DNA of 64,000 nucleotides from an uncultured Gammaproteobacteria bacterium (GCA_964503465.1 CAZCYZ010000001.1:129702-193701); one strand, 5' to 3'; shown: positions 2-54,583, numbered from the stretch's first letter. Numbers and translations are program-made. The notes: generated from the letters alone by a model not told the origin.

Positions 2-217
2 CCCACTGGAACTCCCCAACCTACAAATACTCCAACTAACACTCCAATTCCAACTAACACTCCCACAAATCAGCCAACTTCAACCCCAATGCCAATCGTT
101 GAAGGCCCTAGTCCGACCAGGATTGTTCTCCCCAACGCTGGTATTAGTTTCCCTGGATCCAGTATGGTACTTTTTGGATCTATTGTGACCTTGCTTGGAT
201 TCTTGGTATTATTGTAG
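2..217 (+). CDS. 3' end of a surface protein (partial, start outside window): Pro/Thr-rich linker (PTNTPTNTPIPTNTPTNQPTSTP) followed by LPNAG, a hydrophobic segment and a stop. This is a sortase-type C-terminal sorting signal.
   Basis: Frame 2 translation ends ...RIVLPNAGISFPGSSMVLFGSIVTLLGFLVLL* with TAG at 215-217. The LPxxG-like motif plus hydrophobic tail is the classical sortase substrate architecture. Confidence 0.45.
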   Translation, partial: PTGTPQPTNTPTNTPIPTNTPTNQPTSTPMPIVEGPSPTRIVLPNAGISFPGSSMVLFGSIVTLLGFLVLL

Positions 218-220
218 GTC

Positions 221-1132
221 ATGAAAATTATTGCTCTAATCGAGGCCCTACGCCCATTTCAGTGGATAAAAAATCTTAATCTATTTGCTGCTGCTATTCT
301 TAATGGCAAGCTCTTTGATCCACCAGTTTTTATTCAAAGTCTTATTGGTTTCTTGGTTTTTTCAGCACTATCATCTTCGTCATATTTGATCAATGATCTT
401 GTTGATATGGAACGGGACAAACTCCATCCCTTCAAGAAATTTCGTCCTTTAGCCAGGGGTGACGTTTCTCCAATTCAAGCAATCATTGTTTCATTTGGGT
501 TATTTTGTTTTGCCATTTTGGCTTCTCTTTATGTTAGTTTTGGTTTTTTCGTTCTTTCCCTTATTTTTATTATCATGCAATATTCTTATTCATTCGTATT
601 TAAACGTCGAGCCATTTTAGATATCATTGGCATTTCTCTCTTTTTTATCATTCGGGCTTTTGCTGGTGAAATTGCCACTGGTTACCATCTTCCTGTCTGG
701 ACTATGCTAACGGTTATTTTTCTCTCTCTTTTTATTGCCAGTGGTAAGCGTCGAAGTGAGCTGGTTAGAAGTGGCGTTAAAACTAGACAAGCACTCCAGG
801 GTTACGGTAAAAGTCTCCTTAACTTTTACACCACCATGTTTGCCGTCTGTACTTTGGTTACTTATGCTATGTACACTTTCTTTGCTGAACCTATTAGGTT
901 CCAGGGAATAATTCATCATTTCCTGTTAGATAATTTTCCTGCTGCCCTGGATCGTAAGTGGTATATGGTCACGTTGTTGCCGGTAATATTTGGCATCATG
1001 CGTTATGGCCAAATAATTTTTGAAATGGAAGAAGGGGAGAGGCCCGAACGTGTCGTTACCACCGATATTCCCCTGTTGATGTCAGTTCTTACTTGGGGGC
1101 TAATGATGATCACCATTATTTATGTTCTCTAG
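221..1132 (+). CDS. UbiA-family polyprenyl-phosphate transferase, decaprenyl-phosphate 5-phosphoribosyltransferase-like
   Basis: Polytopic membrane protein. Asp-rich motif NDLVDMERDKLHPFKKFRP matches the NDxxDxxxD-R-HP-K-RP signature of UbiA/DPPR-synthase-type prenyltransferases. Confidence 0.55.
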   Translation: MKIIALIEALRPFQWIKNLNLFAAAILNGKLFDPPVFIQSLIGFLVFSALSSSSYLINDLVDMERDKLHPFKKFRPLARGDVSPIQAIIVSFGLFCFAILASLYVSFGFFVLSLIFIIMQYSYSFVFKRRAILDIIGISLFFIIRAFAGEIATGYHLPVWTMLTVIFLSLFIASGKRRSELVRSGVKTRQALQGYGKSLLNFYTTMFAVCTLVTYAMYTFFAEPIRFQGIIHHFLLDNFPAALDRKWYMVTLLPVIFGIMRYGQIIFEMEEGERPERVVTTDIPLLMSVLTWGLMMITIIYVL

Positions 1133-2648
1133 TATCGTTCTCTTTCTGTTAACCCTATTTACTCGTTTTTTTGGATTTAATTGGGGTAATGGTTTTTTCT
1201 TCCACCCAGACGAAAATAACATGGCCACAGCTATTACCCAGCTGTCTTGGCAAAACCTTAATCCTCACTTTTTTGCCTATGGCCAATTTCCGCTATATCT
1301 TGGTTATTTTTCCCTCAAAACACTTGGACTTGCCAACACCTTTTTCAATTCTGTTTATATTCTCCGTTTTTGGTCAGCTGTCTTTTCCTGTTTCTCTATT
1401 TTGTTTTTTTACCACATTTGTAGATCAAAAATTTTTACCTTGCTATTGGTCTTTACCCCGGGATTAATTCAGTTAGCTCATTTTGGAACCACTGAAAGTC
1501 TGTTGATCTTTGTCTTTGCTGTCAATCTCTATTTGAGCCAACTTATTATTCGCAGCCCCAAACCAAAATATTTTTTTTTGGCCTCTGTTGTTACCGGAAT
1601 CGGTCTGGCTACCAAAATCTCTGCAATTATATTTATTACTCCCGTTCTTCTGGCGACTCTGTTTAACAAAGATAAAAACAAGCTCCACCTCCTATTGTTT
1701 ACTATCTACTGTTTACTGTTCACCTTTCTCTTCTTTATTATTTTCTCTCCATATAACCTAATTGCTCATGCTGACTTCCTCTCATCTCTTCACTACGAGA
1801 CTCAAGTTGCCACTGGCAAATTACCAGTTTTCTACACTAATCAATTTCTTCACACCTCCCCATATTTTTTTCAATTGACCAAGATATTCCCCTACATTGC
1901 TGGTCTTCCGATGTTTATTTTCAGTTCCATAAGTTTTTGTCTTATTCTTAAGTCATATTTCATAGATCGCAAATCATTTAACAACTTAACTATCGTTTTA
2001 CTTTCTTGCCTAGTTTATTTTTTATATTTTGGCCAGGTCTATACCAAATGGACCCGTTTCATGTCCCCCATCTTTTTCATTTTTCCGTTCCTGACGACCG
2101 TCTTATTAGAAAAAATAAATAATATAAATAAAAAAAATATTTTTATTACTTATCTAAATAAGTTTATTATAGTTTTGTCAATTATTCCCGGCATTATGTT
2201 TATGAAGATCTATTTTCAACCCGATGTTCGTCTTATTGCCAGTCGATGGATGGTTCAAGCCATTCCTGCTAATTCGAAAATCCTCTCTGAAGCCGGTAAT
2301 GTAATCAATCTTCCTATAACTGACTTGCCCGCCGCAACCGACCATCAATTACAAGTCACCAATTTTGATTTCTACAACCTTGATACCAATACCAACCTTC
2401 AACCAAAATTGACTGACCAGATTGGTCAGTCTGATTACATTATCATCCCTTCTCGTCGAATTTTTAAAAATCAAAATAATTCCAATTTTCCTGTCTCTCA
2501 ACAATATTACCAACAGTTATTTTCCGGCCAACTCGGTTTTAGTCAAATTAAACAATTTTCTGTTTTTAATGACGAAAACGCCGAGGAAACCTGGTCAGTC
2601 TTCGATCACCCTGTAGTTAGAATTTTCCAAAGAAATTACTACGATTAA
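1122..2648 (+). CDS. GT-C superfamily glycosyltransferase (ArnT/PMT, GT39/GT83-like; polyprenyl-phosphate-sugar dependent)
   Basis: About 12 TM segments. First periplasmic loop FGFNWGNGFFFHPDE carries the conserved DE motif of PMT/ArnT. Paralogous to 4363..6063 (YGLNWDQGYHLHPDE). Start overlaps the upstream gene. Confidence 0.55.
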   Translation: MFSSIVLFLLTLFTRFFGFNWGNGFFFHPDENNMATAITQLSWQNLNPHFFAYGQFPLYLGYFSLKTLGLANTFFNSVYILRFWSAVFSCFSILFFYHICRSKIFTLLLVFTPGLIQLAHFGTTESLLIFVFAVNLYLSQLIIRSPKPKYFFLASVVTGIGLATKISAIIFITPVLLATLFNKDKNKLHLLLFTIYCLLFTFLFFIIFSPYNLIAHADFLSSLHYETQVATGKLPVFYTNQFLHTSPYFFQLTKIFPYIAGLPMFIFSSISFCLILKSYFIDRKSFNNLTIVLLSCLVYFLYFGQVYTKWTRFMSPIFFIFPFLTTVLLEKINNINKKNIFITYLNKFIIVLSIIPGIMFMKIYFQPDVRLIASRWMVQAIPANSKILSEAGNVINLPITDLPAATDHQLQVTNFDFYNLDTNTNLQPKLTDQIGQSDYIIIPSRRIFKNQNNSNFPVSQQYYQQLFSGQLGFSQIKQFSVFNDENAEETWSVFDHPVVRIFQRNYYD

Positions 2649-2656
2649 TTCACCCT

Positions 2657-4366
2657 ATGGTTAAACTAATTCACCAATTTCCACTGACGATTATTGGTGT
2701 CATTCTCTCTATCGTCTCCTTTGCCATCTCTTCTCCTACGCTTGGGTTAAACCAACTAGCTTTTTGCTATTTTCTGTTGTCAATATTACTGATCTTTTTT
2801 GATTATGTTCGAGCGCATGTCACCATTCGGCAGTTGTCAATACCAACTCGGTTGTTTTGGTTCGTCCTTGCCCTAGCTTTTGTATCCAGACTCTCTTTAC
2901 TTACCAGTTACCCTTTTGTTTCAGTTGGTGACCAGCTTCGTGATGGTGGTCTAGACGCCCAAAAAATTGTCAACCAGGAAATTTCAAATCTTTTCGAGTC
3001 TGGAGCTTACAATGCTCATGGACTAATCATTCCCTGGTTCTCCAGTTTGTTCTATCTCTTTATCGGTCCCTCAGTTCTAGTTTATCGAATTCCTGCTGCT
3101 CTTATTTCAATTCTTGACATTATTGCTATTTTTATTTTTGTCAAGTCAATTAAAGGTACCTGGTCAGCATTCTTTAGTAGTCTTGTCTTAATAGTCCTCC
3201 CCCTCCATCTTTTTTACGGCCGGACTGAATTAGTTGTTATTTTTAGTAGTCTGATGGCCACACTCACCCTTTTCACCGTCTATCATTTCTTTGCTCGGCC
3301 AGGTTATCCACTTTACATTCTCTTGGGATTAATAATTGGTTTCTCCTGGAATTTTCATGGCGGAGTCAAGGCCTTCACTATTCTTGTTGCTATTTTTGTG
3401 GTAACCAGAGACCTAATAACCATCGTTACTAAATTGTTATCTAAACAGTCAATTAAAAGTAATCTAATTGGGTTAACTCTATTGGCTGGTTTTCTTATCA
3501 TTGGCTTTGGGCCCAAAATTATTTTTACTAACCAACAGGGATTTGTCCATGCCTCTCGCTTTAACTCCAATAATCTAAGTTTAAATACTCTCACTAATAA
3601 TTATCTTAAGTCCCTTATGGTTTATTTTTATGAGCCAACCAATAGTTGGTATCCTGACCATCAGCCCATTTTGGTACCAATATTTGCCCTGTTCTTCCTC
3701 CTTGGCATCGGCAAAATCATCTTTCTTTCCAAAAATATTTTTGATTGGTTTCTGATATATCTGATTTCTTTAACCCCTTTTACTAACAGTACTATTACCG
3801 ACATCCTCAATGCCGACCACCGCCTGGTTCCTCTACTCCCCGTAATAGTTATCATTATTGGGATAGGAATTGATTATATTCTTGATTCCATTAGTACTAC
3901 TTCTCTCAAGCGTATTTCTACTATTACCCTGTCACTTTACATAATACTAGTCGGGATTCATTTTTTTATCAAGCGACCTGCCGACATTAATGACTATGTC
4001 AATCAAAAACAGGACCTAAAGGATTACCTGTCAATGCATCTTATTTATTTTCTTCGGTCCCAACCTTCGTTTACTATCTCCCCGAACCTTTGCATTTCTG
4101 CACCACCAGCTAACTATCCGAACTATATCTTGACCCACTACCAAGAGCAATATCAGTATTTTTTTCCTCACACGGTGGTCGGAGTAGAAGAAAATCCCAC
4201 TCTTACTGATAGTGAAATAATGATTACTCCTTCCGCTTGTTCATCATTATCCCCCAGTCCAAAAGACTATCAAATTTCCCAAATAGACTGTTCCAGGGAT
4301 AATTTTTTCACTTGTCCGCACGACTATTTAGGTAAAATGAAAATTTATTACCCTTTGTCATTATGA
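2657..4366 (+). CDS. Polytopic membrane protein, probable divergent GT-C glycosyltransferase
   Basis: 569 aa, highly hydrophobic, in tandem between two GT39-like genes and overlapping the next gene by 4 nt. Lacks the clear HPDE motif. Confidence 0.4.
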   Translation: MVKLIHQFPLTIIGVILSIVSFAISSPTLGLNQLAFCYFLLSILLIFFDYVRAHVTIRQLSIPTRLFWFVLALAFVSRLSLLTSYPFVSVGDQLRDGGLDAQKIVNQEISNLFESGAYNAHGLIIPWFSSLFYLFIGPSVLVYRIPAALISILDIIAIFIFVKSIKGTWSAFFSSLVLIVLPLHLFYGRTELVVIFSSLMATLTLFTVYHFFARPGYPLYILLGLIIGFSWNFHGGVKAFTILVAIFVVTRDLITIVTKLLSKQSIKSNLIGLTLLAGFLIIGFGPKIIFTNQQGFVHASRFNSNNLSLNTLTNNYLKSLMVYFYEPTNSWYPDHQPILVPIFALFFLLGIGKIIFLSKNIFDWFLIYLISLTPFTNSTITDILNADHRLVPLLPVIVIIIGIGIDYILDSISTTSLKRISTITLSLYIILVGIHFFIKRPADINDYVNQKQDLKDYLSMHLIYFLRSQPSFTISPNLCISAPPANYPNYILTHYQEQYQYFFPHTVVGVEENPTLTDSEIMITPSACSSLSPSPKDYQISQIDCSRDNFFTCPHDYLGKMKIYYPLSL

Positions 4367-6063
4367 AAAAATTATCCAAAAATTATTTGACGACTATATT
4401 CATTTTCTTCGTGGTGTTGCTAGTCAGATTCTACGGCCTTAATTGGGACCAAGGTTATCATCTCCACCCAGACGAAAGAATGATATCTATGGTAGTTGAT
4501 AAAATTAAACTACCCCAAAGCTCAAACATTGGTCAAATATTTTCCCCCGATTCTAGTCTCAACCCGAAATTTTTTGCCTACGGTTCATTCCCCATCTACC
4601 TACTCAAAACGGTCTCTTCCATTTTTCCCTCCAATTCCCCCTACTCCCAGTATCAAGCCAATAATCTACTTGGTCGGGGCCTGTCAGCTATAGCCGATTC
4701 GGTTTCGGTCGTTCTAATCTACAAAATAGGGCAATTACTTTTCACTTCCCAAGTTGGTATTTTAGCCTCTTTAATTTATGGTTTTGCCGTTCTTCCATTC
4801 CAACTATCGCACTTTTACGCCGTCGACACTCTTTTAAATTGTTTTATTTTATTTACCATTTATCAACTTTGCCAACTCTACCTTCATCGTCGTCCTCTTA
4901 ATGCAATCTTGACCGGTATAGCATTTGGGCTATCTTTAGCTACCAAAATCAGTGCTACTGTTCTACTGGCATCTATTGGAGCCACCTTCTTAGTTGAGTT
5001 TTTACTCTACCTTGTCAAAAAAAATCCCAAACCATCACTCACCTCACTCCAAAATAACACTCTTCTCTTGCTACTAGTATTTCTCGTCACCTTTACCACT
5101 TTCTTCATTTGTCAGCCATTTGCTTTTTTTGACTTTCCAACCTTTTGGAACCAAATTAATGAACAAAAAGCCATGACTCGAAACGCTTTTGTTTTTCCCT
5201 ATACTCTTCAATACGTCTTTACCCCCCCATATGTTTATCAGCTTAAAAATATTTTCTTATGGGGATTTGGACCCATAGCCACAATTTTTGGGCTGTTAGG
5301 ATTTGTTCTCTCTTTAATTAAACTAATTAAAAATCTTTTTATTCCTGGCAATGACACCAAAGAGGGACTACTCCTAATAGTTTTTACCTTTTGCCTTGGC
5401 TATTTTCTTGTTGTTGGCTCCTTTGCGATTAAATTTGTGCGTTACTGTCTTCCGCTTTATCCATTTTTAGCTATCTTTGCCGCTTGGACTATTTTTTCTG
5501 CCCCATCAATTATTATTAAGAAAATCCTTCTAGTAATACTCATGCTATTTCAGCTTAGCTGGTTTTTGGCCTTTACCCATATTTACTCTCTCCCCAACAC
5601 CCGAGTCGAAGCCAGTAATTGGATTAACCAAAATATTCCCAAAGGTAGTCTTATCCTTCGAGAACATTGGGACGATGGTTTACCGCTTTTTGATTCCAGG
5701 CAATTTCGATATCAAGATCTAGCTCTTTACGACTCCGATCTTAATCCCAACAAATGGGCCCAAATTCAATCACAGCTAACTCAAGCCAATTATCTTATAG
5801 TTGCTAGTAATCGTCTTTATACTCCTCTTTTAAAGTTAACAAATTGTGAAGTTCTCCCGCCAGGAAAATGTTACCGCCAAACTGCTCAATACTACCAAGA
5901 TCTTTTTTCAGGTAAGCTGGGTTATCAACTAGTTGCTGAATTTGCTAGATTCCCAAGTTTTCTTGGAGTTGATATAAATGATCAATCAGCCGACGAATCC
6001 TTTACCGTCTACGACCACCCCAAAATAATGATTTTTAGGAACACTCAACAATCACATGAATAA
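4363..6063 (+). CDS. GT-C superfamily glycosyltransferase (ArnT/PMT-like), paralog of 1122..2648
   Basis: YGLNWDQGYHLHPDERMIS loop-1 motif, ~12 TM, FAYGSFP motif shared with its paralog. Confidence 0.55.
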   Translation: MKKLSKNYLTTIFIFFVVLLVRFYGLNWDQGYHLHPDERMISMVVDKIKLPQSSNIGQIFSPDSSLNPKFFAYGSFPIYLLKTVSSIFPSNSPYSQYQANNLLGRGLSAIADSVSVVLIYKIGQLLFTSQVGILASLIYGFAVLPFQLSHFYAVDTLLNCFILFTIYQLCQLYLHRRPLNAILTGIAFGLSLATKISATVLLASIGATFLVEFLLYLVKKNPKPSLTSLQNNTLLLLLVFLVTFTTFFICQPFAFFDFPTFWNQINEQKAMTRNAFVFPYTLQYVFTPPYVYQLKNIFLWGFGPIATIFGLLGFVLSLIKLIKNLFIPGNDTKEGLLLIVFTFCLGYFLVVGSFAIKFVRYCLPLYPFLAIFAAWTIFSAPSIIIKKILLVILMLFQLSWFLAFTHIYSLPNTRVEASNWINQNIPKGSLILREHWDDGLPLFDSRQFRYQDLALYDSDLNPNKWAQIQSQLTQANYLIVASNRLYTPLLKLTNCEVLPPGKCYRQTAQYYQDLFSGKLGYQLVAEFARFPSFLGVDINDQSADESFTVYDHPKIMIFRNTQQSHE

Positions 6064-7111
6064 CAATATCTATATTCAACCAATTTCTCCTTCCACTGTT
6101 ATTTCTGACTATCAAAAGCTTCTTGCCAAGCTTCCTAAACCACAAAACACCCCAACCGTCATTAAATTGAATCTATCATGGACTAAGTTTTATCCAGCTG
6201 TTTCAACTCCACCTTGGCACTTTGATGCCATTCTAAAGTGGCTGATTGATTCCGGAGTTTCCCCCTCAAATATTATTCCAGTTGAGAACCGTACTGTTGT
6301 CACTAAGGTCGAAATTGGTGCCCGAAATCATGGTTGGACCAAAATTGCCAAAAAATACGACGTTAAGCTTCACTACCTCACCAAAGAAAAATACATTGAA
6401 TACCGTCCCAAGTCAAAAATGTTAGTTCTTGACCAAATTTTCCCTGACGGAATTCTTCTCCCGGAAGTAATAATGGATAAACCCCTTATTACTCTGTGCA
6501 CACTTAAGTCTCACGTGTTTACCACCATCACCGGTGCTATCAAAAATTATTTTGGCATGCTTAATACCAATCGTCATTTTTGTCATCGCCGTATTCACCA
6601 AACTATCATTGATCTTCTTCAGATCCAGCGGGAACTCCATCCCCAAATCTTTGCCGTGATGGATGGTAGTGTTCTTGGTTTTGGGCCTGGCCCTAGGGCC
6701 ATGGAGTGGGAGCCAGCCAACCTTGCCCTGGCCAGTTGCGATGAAGTTGCTCTTGATGCCACTGCCGCCAGAATCATTGGTTTTGATCCCAGTCAAATAG
6801 AATTCATCAAGTTAGGGCACAAAATGAAACTGGGCAATATGAACCCTACCTATTCACATTCCTTGCCAAATTTTCACCACTCCGTTCGCAAAGATACTTT
6901 CGCCTCCCGCGGGCAAAAATTTATTTATCACCATCTCCCTGAATGGTTTGAAAAACTAATTCTTCGAAGCCCTATTGCTCCTTGGTCATACGCCGCCTCA
7001 AACCTTTACCATGATGGTTACTGGTACAATTTTGTTGGCAAAAATCGATTGAGTGCTTATCTTCGGTCTGATTGGGGCAAACTGTTTAAAAATTACGTTC
7101 CTCGTGATTAG
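6056..7111 (+). CDS. DUF362-family protein
   Basis: N-terminal VIKLNLSW (IKPN-like) and TLCTLKSH...TGAIKNYFG motifs typical of DUF362. Paralog at 14964..15872. Confidence 0.45.
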   Translation: MNNNIYIQPISPSTVISDYQKLLAKLPKPQNTPTVIKLNLSWTKFYPAVSTPPWHFDAILKWLIDSGVSPSNIIPVENRTVVTKVEIGARNHGWTKIAKKYDVKLHYLTKEKYIEYRPKSKMLVLDQIFPDGILLPEVIMDKPLITLCTLKSHVFTTITGAIKNYFGMLNTNRHFCHRRIHQTIIDLLQIQRELHPQIFAVMDGSVLGFGPGPRAMEWEPANLALASCDEVALDATAARIIGFDPSQIEFIKLGHKMKLGNMNPTYSHSLPNFHHSVRKDTFASRGQKFIYHHLPEWFEKLILRSPIAPWSYAASNLYHDGYWYNFVGKNRLSAYLRSDWGKLFKNYVPRD

Positions 7112-7670
7112 GAAGTTACTATTCTGGCAGCCTTCCATCGATTGTTATCGTCTACTTTCCCAACATCGTTACGGCCAATCCTTCTTAGTGGCCACCAACT
7201 ATTTAATTTGGTTTTTCCTTTTCTTTGTTTCTTATTTGCTAATAAAGCAAAATACCAACGTTTTTTGGCAACTGCTCCTGGCCACCATTACTAGTGAAGT
7301 CATTGAGAAAATAGTTAAAGTCAAAAACCTATGGAAAAGACCAGCTTTTGCCAATGGTAACCAGATCCCTAATGGTTTTATTAAGTCCTGGTACCTCAAG
7401 GGCTCTTTTCCTTCTGGTCATACCATCAAAGCCGTTTTCTTTCTGTTGTTCATCCTTCAATATTCAGTCATATCCCCATTTGTCTATTTGGCTGTCGTTG
7501 TTCCCTTGTTATTAATCAGGGTTATTTGTGGTTTTCATTATCCCGTTGACATTCTTGGTGGGGGTATAATTGGTGGTTTAATTTGGGTCATGTTCAATCA
7601 CATTTACGCCCCCGAATGGCTAAATCAGATTATTTCCCAAATTTTTAATTTCGTTTTTTTTATCAAATAG
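7053..7670 (+). CDS. PAP2-family phosphatase (polyprenyl-diphosphate/phospholipid phosphatase-like)
   Basis: All three PAP2 motifs are present: KVKNLWKRP (Kx6RP), FPSGH, and RVICGFHYPVD (SRx5Hx3D). Annotated start is GTG at 7053 and overlaps the upstream gene by 59 nt. The true start may be a downstream GTG/TTG (e.g. ~7104). Confidence 0.6.
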   Translation: MLIFGLIGANCLKITFLVIRKLLFWQPSIDCYRLLSQHRYGQSFLVATNYLIWFFLFFVSYLLIKQNTNVFWQLLLATITSEVIEKIVKVKNLWKRPAFANGNQIPNGFIKSWYLKGSFPSGHTIKAVFFLLFILQYSVISPFVYLAVVVPLLLIRVICGFHYPVDILGGGIIGGLIWVMFNHIYAPEWLNQIISQIFNFVFFIK

Positions 7671-7674
7671 TCTC

Positions 7675-9732
7675 TTGACTATGTTTTCTGATCTAAAGTT
7701 TATTATTCTCTGGTGGTTTGTTATTTTAACTTGCGGCCTAGCCGTACTTCCTCTTACTCTTCGCCTGTTCTCCAAATTTTGGGATCGGGGATATGTTTTC
7801 GCCAAAATTATTTCTCTAGGATTGACAACATACCTCGTTCTAGTTCTTGGAATTTTTAAAGTTCTACCCTTCACCATTCCGGTTATTCTAGCTGTGTTGA
7901 TCGTTCTAGCTGCTGCCAGTTACAAACTCAATCCCCATTTTTTTGATGATTTACAAAAGAAATATCCGATTTTCGTCATCGAAGAACTGGTCTTTTTACT
8001 AATACTCATTGCTTGGTCTTATATTCGTGGTTTTGCCCCCGATATAGAAGGTCTCGAAAAGTACATGGACTGGGGTTTTATTAATTCTATGCTCCGGACC
8101 AAGTTTCTTCCGCCCATTGACATGTGGTTTGCCAGTGAGCCCATTAATTATTATTATTTTGGCCATCTAATTTTTGCCCTGATCACCAAGCTTTCTAATA
8201 TTCCTTCGGCTATTACTTACAATCTTTCCATCGCCACCGTCTGTTCATTAACTTTCGTTTCCACTTTTTCCTTGGCCTCAAATCTTGTCTCTTCTACCCT
8301 CAAAAAGCCCCGAGTTAAAACTATTATTGTCGCCGGTCTCATCTCCGCTATTATTCTTACATTTGGTGGCAATCTCCATGCTGTTTACAAGATTATCAAA
8401 ATCAATATCAACGATAACGGTCGTTTGACGTTAACTCCCGAGGCCATTACCAAATCCGCTCATGCATATTGGTATCCCGACGCTACTCGGTTTATTGGTT
8501 TTGATCCAGACATCAAAGATAAAACTATTCATGAATTTCCTCTCTATAGCTTTGTAGTTGCCGATCTTCATGGCCACATGAACGACATTCCGGTTATCCT
8601 ATTTTTTATTGCCTTTCTGTTTTCAAGTTTCATTAGTTTTCCTAGTGTCAAAAACCTCTTTAATTGGTTTCTAATTATTCCCTCCGCCCTCACCCTTTCA
8701 ATTGCCTACATGACCAATGCCTGGGATTTTGCTGTTTACGGCCTCCTTTTTGCTATTTCTCACTTTCTTATCTACTTTCAATCTACTCGTCATAAATTAT
8801 TTGAAACTGTCATCAAAACTTTTGTCAACGGAGTTGCAGTTATCATCTTTTGGTATCTATTTACCTTGCCTTTCTCCCTCAATTTCGTTCCCATGGCCCA
8901 AGGTTTAATGCTTTCTGACTCTCGCTCACCCTTTTATCAATTGTTTATTCTTTACGGTGGTTTTTGGCTTATTTGCTTGCCTTTTTTGTTCATTTTTTTG
9001 CAAAAGAACCAAAAGTTTCAAACGGCCGACCATTTTGTCCTTGCCCTGATAATCACCGCCACCATTCTCATTATCATCCCTGAGATTGGTTATCTAAAAG
9101 ACATCTATATCTATGAACATCGTCGAGCCAACACCATGTTTAAACTCGTTTACCAGGCATTTATCATGTACTCTCTCTGTTCAGGTTATATCCTAATTCG
9201 TTTATCAAAACATTTACTCTATCGCATATTATTTGTCATTATCTTTGTCTGTCACCTTCTTTACCCCTATTTTGCCATTCGTTCTTATTATGGTTTTCGC
9301 CAATACCGAGGCCTTTGGGGTTTAAATTATCTTCAAAATCTTTATCCTGACAGCTTGGCTGCTGTTGATTGGCTCAACGCCAATGTTACTGGTCAGCCGG
9401 TAATCCTTGAAGCAGTAGGGGACAGCTACACTACTTTTAATCATGTTTCATCGGCCACTGGTCTGCCCACTATTGAAGGGTGGGTAGTTCATGAATGGCT
9501 CTGGCGTGGCGGTTACGACCAGCCCGGAGCCAGATCGGCTGAAGTCCAAAAGATATATGAATCGACCAACCTTACCGAAGTTCAACAGTTGCTTCAAAAG
9601 TATAATGTCGAATATGTTATTGTTGGTCCCAAAGAGGTTGAGAAATATAAAGACCTTAAAGAAGACAACTTACTAAACCTGGGGGCAAAAGTTGTCTTTC
9701 AAACCGGTCAAACCAAAGTTTATCGACTTTAA
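7675..9732 (+). CDS. DUF2298 / 'Chlor_Arch_YYY' family integral membrane protein (putative GT-C-like glycosyltransferase)
   Basis: 685 aa, highly hydrophobic, contains the diagnostic EPINYYYFGH 'YYY' motif. Confidence 0.5.
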   Translation: MTMFSDLKFIILWWFVILTCGLAVLPLTLRLFSKFWDRGYVFAKIISLGLTTYLVLVLGIFKVLPFTIPVILAVLIVLAAASYKLNPHFFDDLQKKYPIFVIEELVFLLILIAWSYIRGFAPDIEGLEKYMDWGFINSMLRTKFLPPIDMWFASEPINYYYFGHLIFALITKLSNIPSAITYNLSIATVCSLTFVSTFSLASNLVSSTLKKPRVKTIIVAGLISAIILTFGGNLHAVYKIIKININDNGRLTLTPEAITKSAHAYWYPDATRFIGFDPDIKDKTIHEFPLYSFVVADLHGHMNDIPVILFFIAFLFSSFISFPSVKNLFNWFLIIPSALTLSIAYMTNAWDFAVYGLLFAISHFLIYFQSTRHKLFETVIKTFVNGVAVIIFWYLFTLPFSLNFVPMAQGLMLSDSRSPFYQLFILYGGFWLICLPFLFIFLQKNQKFQTADHFVLALIITATILIIIPEIGYLKDIYIYEHRRANTMFKLVYQAFIMYSLCSGYILIRLSKHLLYRILFVIIFVCHLLYPYFAIRSYYGFRQYRGLWGLNYLQNLYPDSLAAVDWLNANVTGQPVILEAVGDSYTTFNHVSSATGLPTIEGWVVHEWLWRGGYDQPGARSAEVQKIYESTNLTEVQQLLQKYNVEYVIVGPKEVEKYKDLKEDNLLNLGAKVVFQTGQTKVYRL

Positions 9733-10290
9733 ATGAAAAATAACTCTGCTCTCAAGATTCTTTTTCTCTACAACTCAATTTTCGTTTTTGCTAACAATCT
9801 TATTGGCCCACTTTTTGCTCTTTACCTTCAAGGTTTTCATTCCAGTACTGTTACTATTAGCTTTACCTGGGCAGTTTTTGTTTTCTTTACGACCATTTTT
9901 ACTTATCTTTTTTCGAAGTTTGGCGATCGAATTAAAGAACAAGAATATACCCTTATGGCCGGCTTCCTTATTCGTTCCATCGTCTGGTTTCTCTATATTT
10001 TTACTGATTCACTCTCGATGGTGGTTGTGCTTCAAGTTGTTTTGGCCTTGGGGGAAGCCTTGGGTTCTCCAAGTTTTGACACCATCTTGTCTCAACATCT
10101 CGACGATGGTAGTCAAGTAGCCGAATATTCCACCTGGCGAGTCATGGCCAATTTATCAATGGCCCTGGCCACCATCATCGGTGGTTTTGTTGTTGCCAAG
10201 TTTGGTTTTCAGGTTTTATTTGTTGTTATGTCTCTTTTGGGTCTTTTTGCTTTTTTTGGCGTGCTCTCCAAACCCCGGGAGTTGCTGTAA
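9733..10290 (+). CDS. Small ~6-TM membrane protein, half-MFS-like
   Basis: 185 aa hydrophobic ORF starting 1 nt after the previous stop. Weak resemblance to an MFS half-transporter. Confidence 0.3.
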   Translation: MKNNSALKILFLYNSIFVFANNLIGPLFALYLQGFHSSTVTISFTWAVFVFFTTIFTYLFSKFGDRIKEQEYTLMAGFLIRSIVWFLYIFTDSLSMVVVLQVVLALGEALGSPSFDTILSQHLDDGSQVAEYSTWRVMANLSMALATIIGGFVVAKFGFQVLFVVMSLLGLFAFFGVLSKPRELL

Positions 10291-13569: not shown

Positions 13570-14967
13570 ATGAGTGACTTAAACAGACTAACTCTGGTGG
13601 AAGCCCGCCAAGGTTTATTATCAAAAAAGTTTTCTTCTCGTGAACTGATTACTGATTGCTTTTCTCAAATTAAAAAAGTTGAACCTCAATTAAACGCTTT
13701 TGTTTCATTATTCGAAGAAGAATCATTAACCAAAGCCGATAATATCGATCTGTCAAAACCATTGGCTGGTATTCCTGTGGCTGTCAAAGACAATTTTTTG
13801 GTCAAGGACCATCGCACCACCGCTTCAGCCAAGGTCCTTGATAGTTACACTGCTCAATATTCTTCCACTTTTACTCAGCGTCTTGAAGATGCTGGGGCCA
13901 TCATCATCGGTAAAACCAACATGGATGCTTGGGCTCACGGCTCATCTACCGAAACTTCCGATTATGGCCCGACCAAAAATCCTTGGAATACCAATCATCT
14001 ACCCGGCGGTTCCAGTGGTGGCAGTGCTGCAGCCGTTGCTGCTGATGAGTGTACTGTTGCTGTTGGTTCCGAAACTGCCGGCTCGATTCGTCAACCAGCT
14101 GCCTGGTGCGGGGTGGTTGGCTTCAAACCCACCTATGGTCGTTGTTCTCGTTACGGCACTATCGCTATGAAATCCAGCACCGATTCACCTGGACCAATTG
14201 CCAAGACAGTTGACGATGCCGCTTATATCCTTTCGCTTGTTTCTGGTTACGATCCCCACGATGCCACTAGTATCGAAGAAGGCCCGTGGTTAATCCCGCC
14301 ACCTTTAACTTCACTTAAGAATATTAAAATTGGCCTTCCTCTGTCGTATTTTCCTCCGCAAATTCAGCCAGATGTAAAACAGGCAGTTTTAAATTCCACT
14401 GAAATTTTCAAAAAACTAGGTGCTGAAATTGTTGAGCTCCCTGACGTTCTAGATCCCAAATATTCGGTTGCCATCTATACCATTCTTCAACGTTCCGAGG
14501 TTAGTAGCAACCTATCTCGATTTGATGGCATTCGCTACGGTAATGATCGCTCATTTTTTTCCCAAGAGGCCAAACGCCGGATTATGCTTGGAACTTATTC
14601 TCTTTCCGCTGGATATTACGATGCCTATTACACCAAAGCTCAAAAAGCCAGAACCCTCCTCTGTCAGGATTTTGACAAACAGTTTGCCAAAGTTGATGTC
14701 ATTATTGGTCCTACCTCTCCTAGTACTGCTCTGCCTCTTAAGGCCACCGAAGGTCAGGCTATGTTTGGTGAACTCCAAGACATGTTCTTGGAACCATCAA
14801 GTATTGCCGGTCTGGCTGGTATTTCCATTCCTTGTGGTTTTGACACTAACAATCTTCCCATTGGTCTTACTATCGTTGCTCCCCAAAAGCGCGAAGATAT
14901 TGTCTATCAACTGGCCAAAACCTTCGAATCCAACACCGATTATCATCTCCAAAAACCTAAACTATGA
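13570..14967 (+). CDS. gatA: Glutamyl-tRNA(Gln)/Asp-tRNA(Asn) amidotransferase subunit A
   Basis: Amidase signature GGSSGGSAAAVAA and a Ser-cisSer-Lys family. Confidence 0.9.
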   Translation: MSDLNRLTLVEARQGLLSKKFSSRELITDCFSQIKKVEPQLNAFVSLFEEESLTKADNIDLSKPLAGIPVAVKDNFLVKDHRTTASAKVLDSYTAQYSSTFTQRLEDAGAIIIGKTNMDAWAHGSSTETSDYGPTKNPWNTNHLPGGSSGGSAAAVAADECTVAVGSETAGSIRQPAAWCGVVGFKPTYGRCSRYGTIAMKSSTDSPGPIAKTVDDAAYILSLVSGYDPHDATSIEEGPWLIPPPLTSLKNIKIGLPLSYFPPQIQPDVKQAVLNSTEIFKKLGAEIVELPDVLDPKYSVAIYTILQRSEVSSNLSRFDGIRYGNDRSFFSQEAKRRIMLGTYSLSAGYYDAYYTKAQKARTLLCQDFDKQFAKVDVIIGPTSPSTALPLKATEGQAMFGELQDMFLEPSSIAGLAGISIPCGFDTNNLPIGLTIVAPQKREDIVYQLAKTFESNTDYHLQKPKL

Positions 14968-15872
14968 TTACCAGACTTGACTCCACCACTCTTGCCAAAA
15001 TCACTACTCAGGCCGATATGGACGAATTTGTTAATTCCCTTGGTCTGACGACTAATACCGTTATCATTAAGCCCAATTGGGTTGATGGTTGTCTTGGTAC
15101 TCATACCGAAGCAAAAGTTCTTGACCTGTTTTTAGGATCATTAAAAAATAAAAAAATTTATCTTGTCGAAAGTTACACTTTTTGGCGCAATCAAAAATCA
15201 ACCGAAGAAGGGGAGGATTCTTTTTCTTCTTCCGAAGCTCAATTTGATACTGGCCAAAAACATTGGGATTTTTTCAAAGCCGGTGACGACTGGTTTCTAA
15301 GAAACAGTGGTATCGGTAAAGTTATTGGGAAATATGGAATCACCTACATTAATGTCACCAATGAACTTTGGGCTGGCCGGGAATCACCCATCCCTCTGGT
15401 TCCCCAAGTTCTTTACGATCTTCAGGGTTCTGACTTTATTAGTTTTGCCAAACTAAAGGGTGATGGTGATTATGGCGCCACCCTATCTATCAAAAATCTT
15501 TTTGGCCTTTACCCAGACCCGCATCGAATGAAAAAATATCATGGGGAAAATGATGAATTGATAAAAGATTCAATTCTAAAGATTAATCAAACCTATCGGC
15601 CTCTCTTTAAACACTTTTCCATTGTCGAAGGTGTCTATTTTGCCAGTTATGTCCACTGGTCCAAACACATTCATCAAGTATCCCAAGATTTGGGTATTAT
15701 TATTGGTGGTCAAGACGCCCTCCAAGTTGACGACACCGCTCTTAAAATGACCCAAACTCAACCATCCGGATCTCTCAAAACACTTCTGGTTGACTATCAA
15801 AAACTTTTTGGTGGTAACTTCCAGTCTCAAAGTATCCCTTCCGATTACCATGTTGAGTTGTTCAAACTATGA
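14964..15872 (+). CDS. DUF362-family protein embedded in the gatCAB operon
   Basis: VIIKPNWVD... and AKLKGDGDYGATLSIKNLFG motifs. Its start overlaps the gatA stop by 4 nt. Confidence 0.45.
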   Translation: MITRLDSTTLAKITTQADMDEFVNSLGLTTNTVIIKPNWVDGCLGTHTEAKVLDLFLGSLKNKKIYLVESYTFWRNQKSTEEGEDSFSSSEAQFDTGQKHWDFFKAGDDWFLRNSGIGKVIGKYGITYINVTNELWAGRESPIPLVPQVLYDLQGSDFISFAKLKGDGDYGATLSIKNLFGLYPDPHRMKKYHGENDELIKDSILKINQTYRPLFKHFSIVEGVYFASYVHWSKHIHQVSQDLGIIIGGQDALQVDDTALKMTQTQPSGSLKTLLVDYQKLFGGNFQSQSIPSDYHVELFKL

Positions 15873-21800: not shown

Positions 21801-21928
21801 TTATCAAAGATACCTATCAAAAAGTTATCTCTTTAAATTTTTCCCAAAACCCATCCTGCCCCGACCACGACCACCTTCATCATCTTGCTTCCAAATACTT
21901 TTTCACTTGTTCCTCGATCCAGGGGTAA
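18824..21928 (+). CDS. UvrD-like helicase fused to a C-terminal RecB-family (PD-(D/E)xK) nuclease with a Cys cluster (AddA/AddB-like single-chain helicase-nuclease)
   Basis: Walker A VVAGAGTGKTQT, DEYQDTN, TIHKAKGLEFDHVF, YVALTRA helicase motifs. C-terminal nuclease motifs EHDF...DKIEII...VVDFKTGK...YFRQLVFYKIL. Cysteines at CPLC and CPDHDHLHHL...FTC. Confidence 0.8.
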   Translation: MINSFDSEYQKLNSDQKLAVDTTDGPVMVVAGAGTGKTQTIALRIANILQKTQIGPSNILCLTFTDSAAINMRQRLSSIIGPDAYSVRISTFHSFCQSIIKHHPEHFLQFHSDSEALDKIEQIQIIQSLIDKLPPNSPLTSSVEIYYAQNQIISAIESLKKESISSSVLADLINQSSQFLQSAASCYQQLKTIRADKKNLNQIIDIVNKLIKLPNINSTYQTKISSLVKDHLTSAKEIKTSIICFYENCQKNLPKQQSLLWLFIEYQQQLSSRHLFDFDDMILSVIDLFKNKPEILAEYQERFQYILVDEYQDTNSSQNQIIDLLAGSDFPNVFVVGDDDQSIFRFQGASTENVYHFYLRYHPQLVVLRNNYRSHRLILASSQTLINRNLNRIATKISNIDKTLIASRDYDPDPINFYVAQSNIEENYCLASSIKKLTDTGVDPNHIAVLVRNNADIDDLLPALSSFNIKYTKDFSINILLQPPIIQLIDLLRLLSNPTDSILFGKVLNFQFLNFPAIDLYRHFHQQPTSDKFVKRLDRFTDRLAKFQKQKLNLPPDRLFNRLIRRFGYLKWVLRCRNLELLKQLDRLYQEFKVNYTDKRLTFDQIVSRLSTHFDSNLSLNCPPLLSESVNCVRLMTIHKAKGLEFDHVFLPKALASRWEDARGRQSIPLPLGIIASEVIGPNYDQELEENRRLFYVALTRAKNQIYLSYTQNNPEGRELLPTRFIAEIDPKNIQTFPTDPNIESSALKLQFSMPNTKLFSTQLSDYLRWYFANKYRLNITHLNSYQKCPLCFFFKTILKIPQAKTIPLSYGTSVHGALAYLFSSYKRTDSLIPLNQFLNIFQNNLVRENLPLKNFDELLTRGRQQLTEYYQHYQSNFSGRCLVEHDFRPYLARIDDIPITGKVDKIEIISGRKVNVVDFKTGKPDNKYHEISREGDYFRQLVFYKILADHSPGFNYQVVSGSIDFIQTNSRNQFVRRDYDITPSDISSLTSIIKDTYQKVISLNFSQNPSCPDHDHLHHLASKYFFTCSSIQG

Positions 21929-22845
21929 GTTAGCTCTACCCCCCGTTTTAATGGAAATTGAGCTTTCCAGCCAGTAGCATAGATTTTGTCGTTACTAAAA
22001 TTTCGTGATTGAACACCAACCGGCCCCCTAATGTGTTTGATGGTAATATTTTTATTAGCCACCTTGGCAACTATTGCCACTAGTTCGTCAACCGAGACAT
22101 ACTCTGGATTACCAATATTCGTTGGTACCGAAACTTCCGAGTCTACTAACTTTCTTATCCCGTCTACCATATCGTCCACATAAGTGTATGACCTTACCGC
22201 CGTTCCGTCCCCCCAAACTTCTATCTCCCCCGAGTCACCTTTGATTTCGGCCACCTTTCGGCATATTGCCGCCGGGGCTTTTTCTCGTCCCCCTTGCCAA
22301 GTTCCTTCAGGTCCATAACAGTTCTGAAATCTGGCTATCCGTACTTTCATCGAGTATTTTCGCCCATACGCTAGCAACATTCTTTCACTATAAAGCTTTT
22401 CCCATCCATATTCATTATCCGGCTGGGCTGGATAAGCCTGTTCTTCGACCATTTCTGGTTCACCGATTTTCATATCACGATACACACAGACCGAAGATGA
22501 AAAAAAATACTTTCTCACCCCTAGTTTGGCGGCGGAGTCAATCATATTAATATTAATTAAGGCGCTATTTCTCATAATTTCGCATTCGGCTGAGTGGATA
22601 AAGCCCATCCCCCCCATATCTGCCGCTAGCTGATAGACCTCATCAAATCCACCGTCTATGGTTAAAGCTTTAATGCAATTTTCTCTTTCCCTCAAATCTA
22701 ATACTAAGAACTCATCTGCGACTGATTTGGTGAATTCATGATTTTTTATATCCACCCCTCTAACCCAATAACCATCTTTTTTTAGCCTCTTAACCAAATG
22801 TCCGCCAATAAAACCTCCTGCTCCCCCAACCAAAACTTTTTTCAT
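21880..22845 (-). CDS. gme: GDP-mannose 3,5-epimerase-like NAD-dependent epimerase (SDR family)
   Basis: GGAGGFIGGH Rossmann motif, LAADMGGMGFI, YGWEK (YxxxK), GTWQGGREKAPAAICRK, GPVGVQSRNFSN and the C-terminal YPWIEEQ all match GME. Its 3' end convergently overlaps the helicase-nuclease by 49 nt. Confidence 0.75.
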   Translation of the reverse strand: MKKVLVGGAGGFIGGHLVKRLKKDGYWVRGVDIKNHEFTKSVADEFLVLDLRERENCIKALTIDGGFDEVYQLAADMGGMGFIHSAECEIMRNSALININMIDSAAKLGVRKYFFSSSVCVYRDMKIGEPEMVEEQAYPAQPDNEYGWEKLYSERMLLAYGRKYSMKVRIARFQNCYGPEGTWQGGREKAPAAICRKVAEIKGDSGEIEVWGDGTAVRSYTYVDDMVDGIRKLVDSEVSVPTNIGNPEYVSVDELVAIVAKVANKNITIKHIRGPVGVQSRNFSNDKIYATGWKAQFPLKRGVELTYPWIEEQVKKYLEAR

Positions 22846-53861: not shown

Positions 53862-54583
53862 CCTATATTTACGTCAAAAAAACACCACCACCTATTCGTC
53901 CCCAGCCTAGACTAAATCCGCCAACCCGTCGTATTCTTGCTTTGGTTCTTTTGTTGGCCGGTTTGGCTTTTTTAACCTCGGCCATTTTTCCCATCGTCCA
54001 GTTTCAATTAGCTTACGCCAATCGTTTCCGGGAAGTCATCAATCCGCTTTCAAGTCGCTTTTATAACCGTCAAGACAATGTTTTAGGAGATGTTGATTAT
54101 ACCCAACTTAATAACTGGTTTATTTCCAATTCAAACAACTCTACCCCGGGGACTTTAGCTTCTTCTCCATCCAACACCTACTACATTTCTATTCCCAAGC
54201 TCAACATTGATTCGGCCACTGTCGAGGTTGGCAGTCTCGATCTCAAACACAGTCTCATTCAATATCCTCAAACCGCTCTTCCGGGTCAATTTGGTAATTC
54301 AGTTATTTTTGGTCACTCCGTTTTGCCGCAGTTTTTTAACCCCAAATCATATTTAACTATTTTTTCCACTCTCTATCGTCTCAAGCAAGGTGATGAAATT
54401 TTTGTTGATTTTGATCAGATTCGTTATAAATTCTTAGTCGAAGAAATGTATGAAGTCCAACCAACCGACCTTTCAGTTCTCGAACAACGTTTTGATGGCC
54501 GTTATCTTACCCTCATCACTTGTAGTCCGCCCGGTACCTACCTCCGCCGCCTGATCGTTAAAACTCGCATTGTCGACATTTAA
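53858..54583 (+). CDS. Sortase-family transpeptidase
   Basis: N-terminal TM, FGHSVL His region, catalytic TLITC, conserved Arg near the C-terminus (YLRRLIVKTR). Confidence 0.6.
   Translation: MTYIYVKKTPPPIRPQPRLNPPTRRILALVLLLAGLAFLTSAIFPIVQFQLAYANRFREVINPLSSRFYNRQDNVLGDVDYTQLNNWFISNSNNSTPGTLASSPSNTYYISIPKLNIDSATVEVGSLDLKHSLIQYPQTALPGQFGNSVIFGHSVLPQFFNPKSYLTIFSTLYRLKQGDEIFVDFDQIRYKFLVEEMYEVQPTDLSVLEQRFDGRYLTLITCSPPGTYLRRLIVKTRIVDI

Follow-up and report, generated by a model that had tools for sequence, protein, structure and literature searches.

A Shapirobacteria gene cluster with the probable makings of a polyprenyl-phosphate pentofuranose glycosylation system and a LarA-like DUF362 protein

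The mycobacterial precedent begins with Rv3806c and the PAP2 enzyme Rv3807c, whose joint product is decaprenyl-phosphate-ribose; DprE1 and DprE2 epimerise it, and GT-C enzymes use what results. The flippase of that pathway is the SMR/GtrA-like Rv3789. Here we describe eight genes at positions 221-10290 of a stretch of 64,000 nucleotides (GCA_964503465.1 CAZCYZ010000001.1:129702-193701; the whole stretch is called the window), deposited under the name of an uncultured Gammaproteobacteria bacterium, which a first-pass annotation of the DNA had likened to this mycobacterial pathway. The cluster probably represents the version that Shapirobacteria (Patescibacteria/candidate phyla radiation, CPR) have of the polyprenyl-phosphate pentofuranose glycosylation systems. 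Ribofuranose is added to the O-antigens of Citrobacter by a UbiA-HAD fusion acting with a MATE flippase and a GT-C enzyme, and an extra epimerase of the short-chain dehydrogenase/reductase (SDR) family leads to a xylofuranose donor (PMC11127046). In the O1/O2 types of Citrobacter youngae the components are ORF15 (PPPRS-HAD phosphatase), ORF14 (MATE flippase), ORF12 (GT-C of family GT136) and the optional ORF13 (SDR epimerase) (Kelly et al. 2024, PMC11127046). Arabinosylation of group IV pilins of Pseudomonas aeruginosa employs the GT-C enzyme TfpW and a pathway like that of decaprenyl-phosphate-arabinose (DPA) (bioRxiv 10.1101/2020.04.19.049825). The cluster is not a new kind of system, since pathways of this type are known from mycobacteria, where the type was defined, and were generalised in 2024; the pathway first annotated as uncharacterised is of a kind already described (Kelly et al. 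2024, PMC11127046). Literature searches on DUF2298, DUF362 and pentose pathways of Patescibacteria/CPR returned no description of the cluster itself, and the supplement of PMC11127046 makes no mention of PAP2, DUF2298, DUF362 or Candidatus. The cluster is an undescribed Patescibacteria variant whose GT-C families differ and whose auxiliary protein models as a LarA fold.

Eight co-directional genes with overlapping or abutting ends had been annotated, and all of these open reading frames (ORFs) are present on the + strand within 221-10290 at the coordinates given then. Their order is UbiA, GT-C#1, GT-C#2, GT-C#3, DUF362, PAP2, DUF2298 and a half-length MFS gene, and the successive junctions measure -11, +8, -4, -8, -8, +10 and 0 nt. 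The features, with the evidence for each, are as follows.

221..1132, + strand: putative UbiA-family polyprenyl-phosphate 5-phosphoribosyltransferase (DPPR/PPPR synthase-like), 303 aa (Pfam, NCBIfam, PDB, residues)
1122..2648, + strand: GT-C#1, PMT_2-like membrane glycosyltransferase, 508 aa, conserved core gene (PMT_2 29.2 bits)
2657..4366, + strand: GT-C#2, lineage-specific extra GT-C, 569 aa (PMT_2 25.0 bits, hhalign)
4363..6063, + strand: GT-C#3, PMT_2-like membrane glycosyltransferase, 566 aa, conserved core gene (PMT_2 39.2 bits)
6056..7111, + strand: DUF362 protein, 351 aa, soluble, predicted LarA-like fold, in the variable Y slot (DUF362 92.1 bits, model)
7104..7670, + strand: PAP2 phosphatase, 188 aa, GTG start at 7104, ORF open from 7053 (PAP2 51.7 bits, motifs)
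7681..9732, + strand: DUF2298/Chlor_Arch_YYY membrane protein, 683 aa, ORF open from a TTG at 7675 (DUF2298 323 bits)
9733..10290, + strand: half-length MFS protein, 185 aa, about 6 transmembrane (TM) helices, lineage-specific (MFS_1 68.5 bits)

UbiA provides the most direct link to pentose chemistry. Besides its match to PF01040 (84.8 bits), it reached 198, 175 and 159 bits with the three NCBIfam models of decaprenyl-phosphate phosphoribosyltransferases and 152 bits with the HAD-UbiA fusion family PRK08238, but at most 46 bits with the models of heme-o synthase, 4-hydroxybenzoate and GGGP prenyltransferases. The best match in the PDB was Rv3806c (8j8j, E 7e-36), followed by AfUbiA (E 5.7e-7). 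The motif was read in the translation as NDLVDMERDKLHPFKKFRP, and N58-D59-x2-D62-x3-D66 aligns with N73-D74-D77-D81 of Rv3806c, the motif N-D-x2-D-x3-D of cytoplasmic loop 1. For Rv3806c, the residues binding Mg2+, pyrophosphate, ribose, 5-phosphate and decaprenyl phosphate are established, and its phosphoribose-binding sites are absent from prenyltransferases (PMC10994848). Thirteen of the 15 substrate and motif residues are identical in the UbiA of the window (R22, K28, Y70, N73, D74, D77, D81, K87, R90, Q135, Y138, K143 and K191 in Rv3806c numbering), including all eight positions that bind phosphoribose or pyrophosphate (R22, K28, Y70, K87, R90, Q135, Y138, K143). The two that differ are Y157, replaced by Phe as in some mycobacteria, and K208, replaced by Gln.

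Conserved are thus K28, Y70 and Q135, which contact the 5-phosphate and ribose of phosphoribosyl pyrophosphate (PRPP), together with the K/R cluster found in place of a second Asp-rich motif (roles from PMC10994848). Because UbiA keeps phosphoribose sites that are foreign to prenyltransferases, this is good evidence for PRPP-dependent phosphoribosyl transfer, and the DPPR-synthase-like character first proposed for UbiA is confirmed at the level of models and residues, which place it with the decaprenyl-phosphate phosphoribosyltransferases (DPPR synthases). That UbiA is an ordinary prenyltransferase for quinone, heme O or ether-lipid synthesis, in a cluster unrelated to pentose, would agree with its superfamily membership and with the label 4-hydroxybenzoate polyprenyltransferase that JGI gives to some orthologues, but the low scores of the prenyltransferase models beside 198 bits and the conserved phosphoribose contacts make this highly improbable.

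The prospective users of the lipid-linked sugar are membrane glycosyltransferases. GT-C#1 and GT-C#3 match PMT_2 above the cutoff (29.2 and 39.2 bits) and are paralogues (29% identity, E 4e-45). Both carry HPDE directly past the first TM helix, with D37/E38 conserved to at least 90% in the family alignment, and GT-C#1 ends in a soluble domain of about 140 aa. With 25.0 bits, GT-C#2 stays 1.1 bits under the PMT_2 gathering score of 26.1. A BLAST comparison of GT-C#2 with GT-C#1/#3 found no similarity, and the profile comparison aligned it with GT-C#1/#3 over 345 columns, GDQLRD falling on HPDER (hhalign, 98.6% probability, E 1.3e-15); its identity as a putative GT-C is confirmed at this profile level. 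All three proteins therefore match GT-C models, either PMT_2 or its profile. In terms of Pfam matches, which are what sets them apart from the EpsG-like family GT136, the GT-C genes belong to PMT_2 and DUF2298 and not to EpsG.

The DUF2298 'YYY' membrane protein, recognised as such from the start, scored 323 bits with Pfam and 493 bits with TIGR03662 (Chlor_Arch_YYY). It has a GT-C fold with no clear nearest subfamily and an AglB-like C-terminal globular domain, and it resembles STT3 and AglB. Its invariant stretch W601-x2-H604-E605-W606-x-W608 may be likened to the WWDYG motif. As DUF2298 itself has a GT-C fold, the cluster contains four GT-C genes. On sequence, a common origin of DUF2298 and GT-C#1/#3 was rejected, as hhalign gave 40% and this for the C-terminal region only; PDB sequence searches gave nothing useful for DUF2298 and GT-C#3, and a comparison at the fold level was needed. 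Hence, of the three ArnT/PMT-like GT-C enzymes originally listed, two with an HPDE loop, GT-C#1 and GT-C#3 stand in both respects, GT-C#2 stands by its profile, and DUF2298 is to be added as a fourth.

The cluster was compared with its relatives on the basis of DUF2298, whose representatives at 50% identity amounted to 6,348 clusters with E <=0.001. Thirty-eight diverse DUF2298 proteins were aligned, one genome per GTDB species was scanned, and 80 loci were annotated with hidden Markov models built here; neighbourhood look-ups and tblastn gave the gene order in close relatives. The loci examined came from Patescibacteria, Chloroflexota and Clostridia. Counts of UbiA and of the oxidoreductase FADx refer to those 60 loci whose sequence extends 8 kb or more 5' of DUF2298. 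Close relatives have the order UbiA, GT-C#1, GT-C#3, a variable slot, PAP2, DUF2298, UvrD and FemAB. The first six of these positions define type A, found in the window and about 27 species, in which the slot (Y) is empty or holds an SDR epimerase/dehydratase (7 loci), DUF362, a methyltransferase or a GT4. In type A, UbiA always lies directly 5' of GT-C#1 and overlaps it. Type B reads FADx, GT-C#1, GT-C#3, SDR, the HAD-like gene HADz and DUF2298, and occurs in Levy-, Woese- and Blackburnbacteria, one member of the Limnocylindrales and one of the Saccharimonadales.

FADx corresponds to the uncharacterised NCBIfam family PRK07233 (382-492 bits) of flavin adenine dinucleotide (FAD) oxidoreductases related to CrtI and HpnE; examples are L058 3788-5065, L078 2410-3708 (-), L083 5403-6698 (-) and L087 2608-3897 (-). 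It was present near DUF2298 in 31 of the 60 loci, three Clostridia included, and together with UbiA in only one of these 31. It takes the position of UbiA, 5' of GT-C#1, so that the two genes are almost mutually exclusive. Three loci are intermediate: FADx-UbiA-GTC1-GTC3-...-HADz-DUF2298 in L032, FADx-GTC3-GTC3-UbiA-HADz-DUF2298 in L071 and FADx-GTC1-GTC3-DUF362-HADz-DUF2298 in L006. Orthologues of GT-C#1 share 48-51% identity in L002, L005 and L007, those of GT-C#3 34-53% in all related clusters. No homologue of GT-C#2 was found in the related Patescibacteria clusters, the only other one lying in the Limnocylindrales (Chloroflexota) locus L059, and the half-length MFS protein has no homologue in any of 89 related loci. 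Absent from the related Patescibacteria clusters examined, these two genes are lineage-specific additions. The MFS gene had been annotated as a small protein with six TM helices; the number of helices is about right, and the protein is a half-length MFS member, matching MFS_1 over profile positions 1-166 of 347.

Across about 27 species-level relatives the cluster is conserved as a unit. The first-pass interpretation is supported overall, including on the three points it had named as able to overturn it: UbiA groups with DPPR synthases and not with quinone or heme prenyltransferases, the GT-C proteins match GT-C models, and the genes stay together in related genomes.

A phosphatase accompanies UbiA throughout. 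The PAP2 protein (PF01569, 51.7 bits) contains, as annotated, all three catalytic motifs, which were read as KVKNLWKRP (KxxxxxxRP), PSGH and (I)RVICGFHYPVD (pattern SRxxxxxHxxxD). UbiA was present in 23 of the 60 loci, each time with GT-C genes and with a phosphatase (23/23). In 22 of the 23 this is PAP2, L012 among them having the HAD-like gene as well, and in L032 it is the HAD-like gene alone. Of the 75 loci whose length allowed scoring, 49 have a phosphatase gene directly 5' of DUF2298, and in 25 of all 80 loci PAP2 takes that position. From its adjacency to UbiA and this co-occurrence, PAP2 is proposed to be the polyprenyl-phosphate-ribose-5-phosphate phosphatase, in a role like that of Rv3807c. 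HADz comprises soluble proteins of about 180 aa without signal peptide or TM segment and without a Pfam or NCBIfam model. Its invariant residues D6-x-D8, S81, K120 and D135-D136 (DxD...S...K...DDD) are arranged like motifs I-IV of HAD phosphatases, and the HAD assignment is based on these motifs and a single sub-threshold match to LNS2; a profile search of the PDB with HADz gave no useful match. HADz is always found directly 5' of DUF2298, the place of PAP2 in type A (L058 9450-9995, L059 9444-9992, L071 4882-5418 and 27 other loci). PAP2 and HAD phosphatases are described as alternatives in known systems (PMC11127046), and the exchange of PAP2 for an unrelated HAD-like protein mirrors this.

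A different role of PAP2 is conceivable, in which DUF2298 acts like an oligosaccharyltransferase and releases polyprenyl diphosphate and PAP2 is an undecaprenyl-diphosphatase recycling it. The likeness of DUF2298 to STT3/AglB with its AglB-like C-terminal domain, its invariant W601-W608 stretch and weak NCBIfam similarities of PAP2 to undecaprenyl-diphosphatases and PgpB all agree with such a function. We nevertheless regard it as quite improbable, for the soluble HADz in the same slot has neither signal peptide nor TM segment and could not reach polyprenyl diphosphate at the outer face, and PAP2 goes with UbiA in all but one of the UbiA loci.

The polyprenyl-phosphate-ribofuranose model was adopted because synthase, phosphatase and GT-C enzymes are all present and because the relatives show two traits expected of pentofuranose systems, namely a phosphatase that is indispensable yet can be exchanged for an unrelated type, and an auxiliary slot that can hold an SDR epimerase. 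The variable slot between GT-C#3 and the phosphatase is as predicted by the model in which an auxiliary epimerase diversifies the pentose (PMC11127046). In a first step, strongly suggested by the UbiA residues, UbiA would move 5-phosphoribose from PRPP onto polyprenyl phosphate at the cytoplasmic face. PAP2 would then strip off the 5-phosphate, yielding polyprenyl-phosphate-ribofuranose. More speculatively, the LarA-fold DUF362 protein might alter the sugar by oxidation/reduction or epimerisation, occupying a slot that in sister clusters holds an SDR or nothing. A transporter would flip the lipid-linked sugar across the membrane, and outside GT-C#1, GT-C#3 and DUF2298, with the extra GT-C#2, would use it to make or decorate a glycan or glycoprotein of the envelope.

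Compared with the three-component Citrobacter systems, the window likewise encodes, side by side, a synthase of UbiA type that would use PRPP, a phosphatase and several GT-C enzymes, and the optional auxiliary enzyme that sets the final pentose there has its counterpart in the SDR found in the Y slot of sister clusters. In contrast to Citrobacter, the phosphatase is a separate PAP2 protein, as in mycobacteria, and not a fused HAD domain; there is no MATE or SMR flippase gene in the cluster; three to four GT-C enzymes of PMT_2-like and DUF2298 types stand in place of one GT136; the auxiliary gene of the window is a DUF362 of LarA fold; and the host is a CPR bacterium without O-antigen. With the mycobacterial DPA pathway the cluster shares the pair of ubiA and PAP2 genes, the 13 of 15 identical Rv3806c residues and the presence of several GT-C enzymes, which suggests stepwise extracytoplasmic assembly over a single side-chain addition; the number of conserved GT-C genes likewise resembles arabinan assembly more than the addition of one side chain. 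It differs in that its GT-C proteins do not match the Arabinose_trans, Emb and Aft families by sequence, and in the lack of DprE1 and DprE2. As noted before, no homologue of either, DprE1 being sought as FAD_binding_4, was seen among the large ORFs of the 64-kb window, the only SDR being the distant, unlinked one at 21880-22845. Pilin arabinosylation in Pseudomonas also involves a lipid-linked pentofuranose and a GT-C that O-glycosylates a surface protein, and PilN/PilO-like genes and a gene for a Thr/Pro-rich protein lie 5' of the cluster in relatives. The GT-C families differ, however, DprE1/DprE2 are absent from the window, and pilins as acceptors are unsupported here.

Several observations weigh against the pentofuranose assignment. 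UbiA falls about 9 bits short of the cutoff of the equivalog model NF008978 (197.7 versus 207 bits), which its orthologue in L032 clears with 209.4, and the weak similarities of PAP2 mentioned above point elsewhere. The cluster has no conserved flippase gene, only the non-conserved half-length MFS gene at 9733-10290. The GT-C genes look like PMT_2 and not like the Emb/Aft or GT136 families, and those PMT_2 members that have been characterised take hexose or 4-amino-4-deoxyarabinose (Ara4N) donors. In 37 of the 60 DUF2298 loci no UbiA was found within 10 kb, and most of these keep GT-C#1/#3; given such loci, GT-C and DUF2298 may or may not depend on a PRPP-derived donor. All clusters of the UbiA type come from one clade, so their conservation amounts to about one evolutionary event, and the unrelated neighbours UvrD and FemAB are conserved just as well; for both reasons synteny alone is weak evidence.

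Part of this would be accommodated if UbiA and PAP2 make polyprenyl-phosphate-ribose while the GT-C enzymes and DUF2298 use another lipid-linked donor, for instance a polyprenyl-phosphate-hexose from a GT2 synthase, the genes being neighbours merely by synteny. The many loci without UbiA, the equally conserved UvrD and FemAB, the donors used by PMT_2 members and a GT2 gene inside the Chloroflexota cluster L059 are in line with this. On the other hand, UbiA invariably overlaps GT-C#1 in type A, the intermediate loci L032 and L071 pair UbiA with the HAD-like gene, and a phosphatase gene stays at DUF2298 in both architectures, which is hard to explain without a phosphorylated lipid-sugar intermediate. 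We consider so loose an association unlikely and retain the pentofuranose system as the more probable explanation of the cluster.

The auxiliary gene of the window encodes a soluble protein that matches DUF362 with 92.1 bits, in agreement with the earlier annotation. Searches of the PDB by single sequence and by profile found no match for it. Its structure model (pLDDT 91.2) gave eleven top PDB matches that are all LarA-family nickel-pincer racemases (Foldseek probability 1.00, E 3.5e-5 to 3e-3; next match E 0.03), so that the protein models as a LarA-like fold, its only significant PDB matches belonging to that family. This agrees with the common Pfam clan CL0471 of DUF362 and DUF2088 (PMC11770544). 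Invariant residues of the DUF362 protein include H153, K163, H174 and H177. In LarA1, the catalytic His pair, the Lys tethering the nickel-pincer nucleotide (NPN) and the Ni-binding His are H108, H174, K184 and H200 (PMC11770544). The spacing in H153-x9-K163 of the DUF362 protein equals that in H174-x9-K184 of LarA. The two differ in other respects: identity is 11-14% with a TM-score of about 0.4 and no match at the sequence level, and the substrate would be a lipid-linked sugar rather than a 2-hydroxy acid. ORFs resembling LarB, LarC or LarE were absent from the 64-kb window. Its orthologues (55-81% identity) in L002, L006, L011, L038, L089 and L090 are placed after the GT-C genes and before DUF2298, and in these loci and the window DUF362 is always in the Y slot and never together with an SDR. 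Based on the modelled fold, the equivalence of slots with the SDR and the H153-x9-K163 spacing, the protein is a speculative candidate for a donor-modifying oxidoreductase or epimerase.

In L089 a radical SAM/SPASM-like gene (6906-7979) lies directly 5' of the DUF362 gene of the cluster. The window has a second and strongly diverged DUF362 gene at 14964-15872 (+), with 47.8 bits, located between gatA and gatB, which keeps the IKNxFG stretch. It was rejected as a close paralogue of the DUF362 gene of the cluster (BLASTP E 0.03; conserved His lacking).

A candidate acceptor is encoded directly upstream of UbiA by an ORF of which the window holds the end.

2..217, + strand: C-terminal end encoded by an upstream gene that the window edge truncates, candidate acceptor (translation)

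This protein end consists of a Thr/Pro-rich linker (PTNTPTNTPIPTNTPTNQPTSTP) followed by IVLPNAG and a hydrophobic tail; the latter two resemble a sorting signal of the sortase type. In L004 the gene directly 5' of UbiA (8769-9998) also encodes IVLPQSG and a hydrophobic end after long TPTPTP linkers, with about 90 residues of TPTPTP repeats lying between its Cys-rich domains. In the window, the ORF at 2..217 is the only one with both a Thr/Pro-rich linker and a sorting tail, and a sortase gene is located at 53858-54583. The Thr/Pro-rich sortase-signal protein upstream of UbiA thus is a plausible, and the most obvious, candidate for O-glycosylation. The giant surface proteins of the window, which had been put forward as substrates, were rejected as acceptors because they have neither a Thr/Pro-rich linker nor a sorting tail, the protein ending at 217 being the better candidate. 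The same proposal had named a GDP-mannose 3,5-epimerase at 21880..22845; this proved to be no more than an extended SDR of generic type, whose best model gave 114 bits where the cutoff is 500, with no link to the cluster, and neither that function nor a part in the system found support. The sortase gene overlaps the 3' end of a gene for a 680-aa protein without family match, the two covering 51819-54583 (+).

As a flippase for the lipid-linked sugar, the half-length MFS protein is a guess. In L090 (9052-10038) and L030 (8479-9474) a protein of the type LPG_synthase_TM, like the flippase domain of MprF, is encoded directly 5' of PAP2-DUF2298, and could be a lipid-sugar flippase in these loci. 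In relatives, a MurJ/MATE-like gene lies 4-5 kb 5' of the cluster. It precedes four conserved upstream genes (L006 1810-4835, L002 5819-8719, L058 878-3791), whose products are a PilN-like protein, PilO, a small membrane protein and, as the fourth, a surface protein of Big_13/fn3 type in which the linker is Thr/Pro-rich and the tail of the MPVTG type. The PilN and PilO genes may recall the pilin arabinosylation of Pseudomonas, or reflect mere synteny. On the other side of the cluster, a gene for a LytR-CpsA-Psr (LCP) ligase lies 3' of DUF2298 on the opposite strand in L006 (14421-15557, -) and L089 (11726-12661, -). An ORF of similar size, its family not scanned, takes this position in L058 (12566-13702, -) and other type B loci. 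The LCP gene beside DUF2298 hints at a wall-attached glycopolymer as the product.

The tight spacing of the genes continues past the cluster into UvrD (gap 7) and FemAB (gap 3), and about 5 of the about 46 large ORFs of the window lie on the - strand. With a window almost entirely on the + strand and a packing that reaches UvrD and FemAB, co-directionality and dense packing are traits of this genome and no evidence of an operon. A scan for promoters and terminators at operon boundaries was uninformative, terminator-like sites being no commoner than in shuffled sequences. The GC skew is negative across 1-64000 (cumulative -5.0) despite the mostly + strand genes, the coding strand being rich in C and T. 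An identical cluster sequence was found in the Logan assembly of SRR8925802. Homologues of UbiA, DUF362 and DUF2298 with 60-80% identity occur in Candidatus Shapirobacteria and related Microgenomates, and the window therefore belongs to that lineage. Many of the loci L009-L088 are likewise titled 'uncultured Gammaproteobacteria bacterium' though by content they are Microgenomates/Patescibacteria; the title looks like a placeholder.

CPR/Patescibacteria are abundant and mostly uncultured epibionts whose surface chemistry is almost unknown. A pathway from PRPP to a lipid-linked pentose that feeds three to four GT-C enzymes predicts glycans or glycoproteins with ribo-, arabino- or xylofuranose in their envelope. 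If this is true, pentofuranose glycosylation systems extend beyond Actinobacteria and the O-antigens of Gram-negative bacteria. Furthermore, the cluster offers functional hypotheses for the large families DUF2298 and DUF362, neither with an assigned function, and for a HAD-like family that has no name, and the modular exchanges (PAP2 for the HAD-like protein; nothing, SDR or DUF362 in the slot) constitute a natural experiment on the roles of these genes. It may even be that DUF362 is a new epimerase or oxidoreductase acting on polyprenyl-phosphate-ribofuranose and DUF2298 a new GT-C family transferring PRPP-derived pentofuranose or glycans to envelope proteins or polymers, a combination that we hold to be rather unlikely as a whole. 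If it were true, DUF362 and the SDR epimerase of sister clusters could replace each other, DUF362 would offer in a single protein an alternative to DprE1/DprE2, and many CPR bacteria would be coated with pentofuranose glycans.

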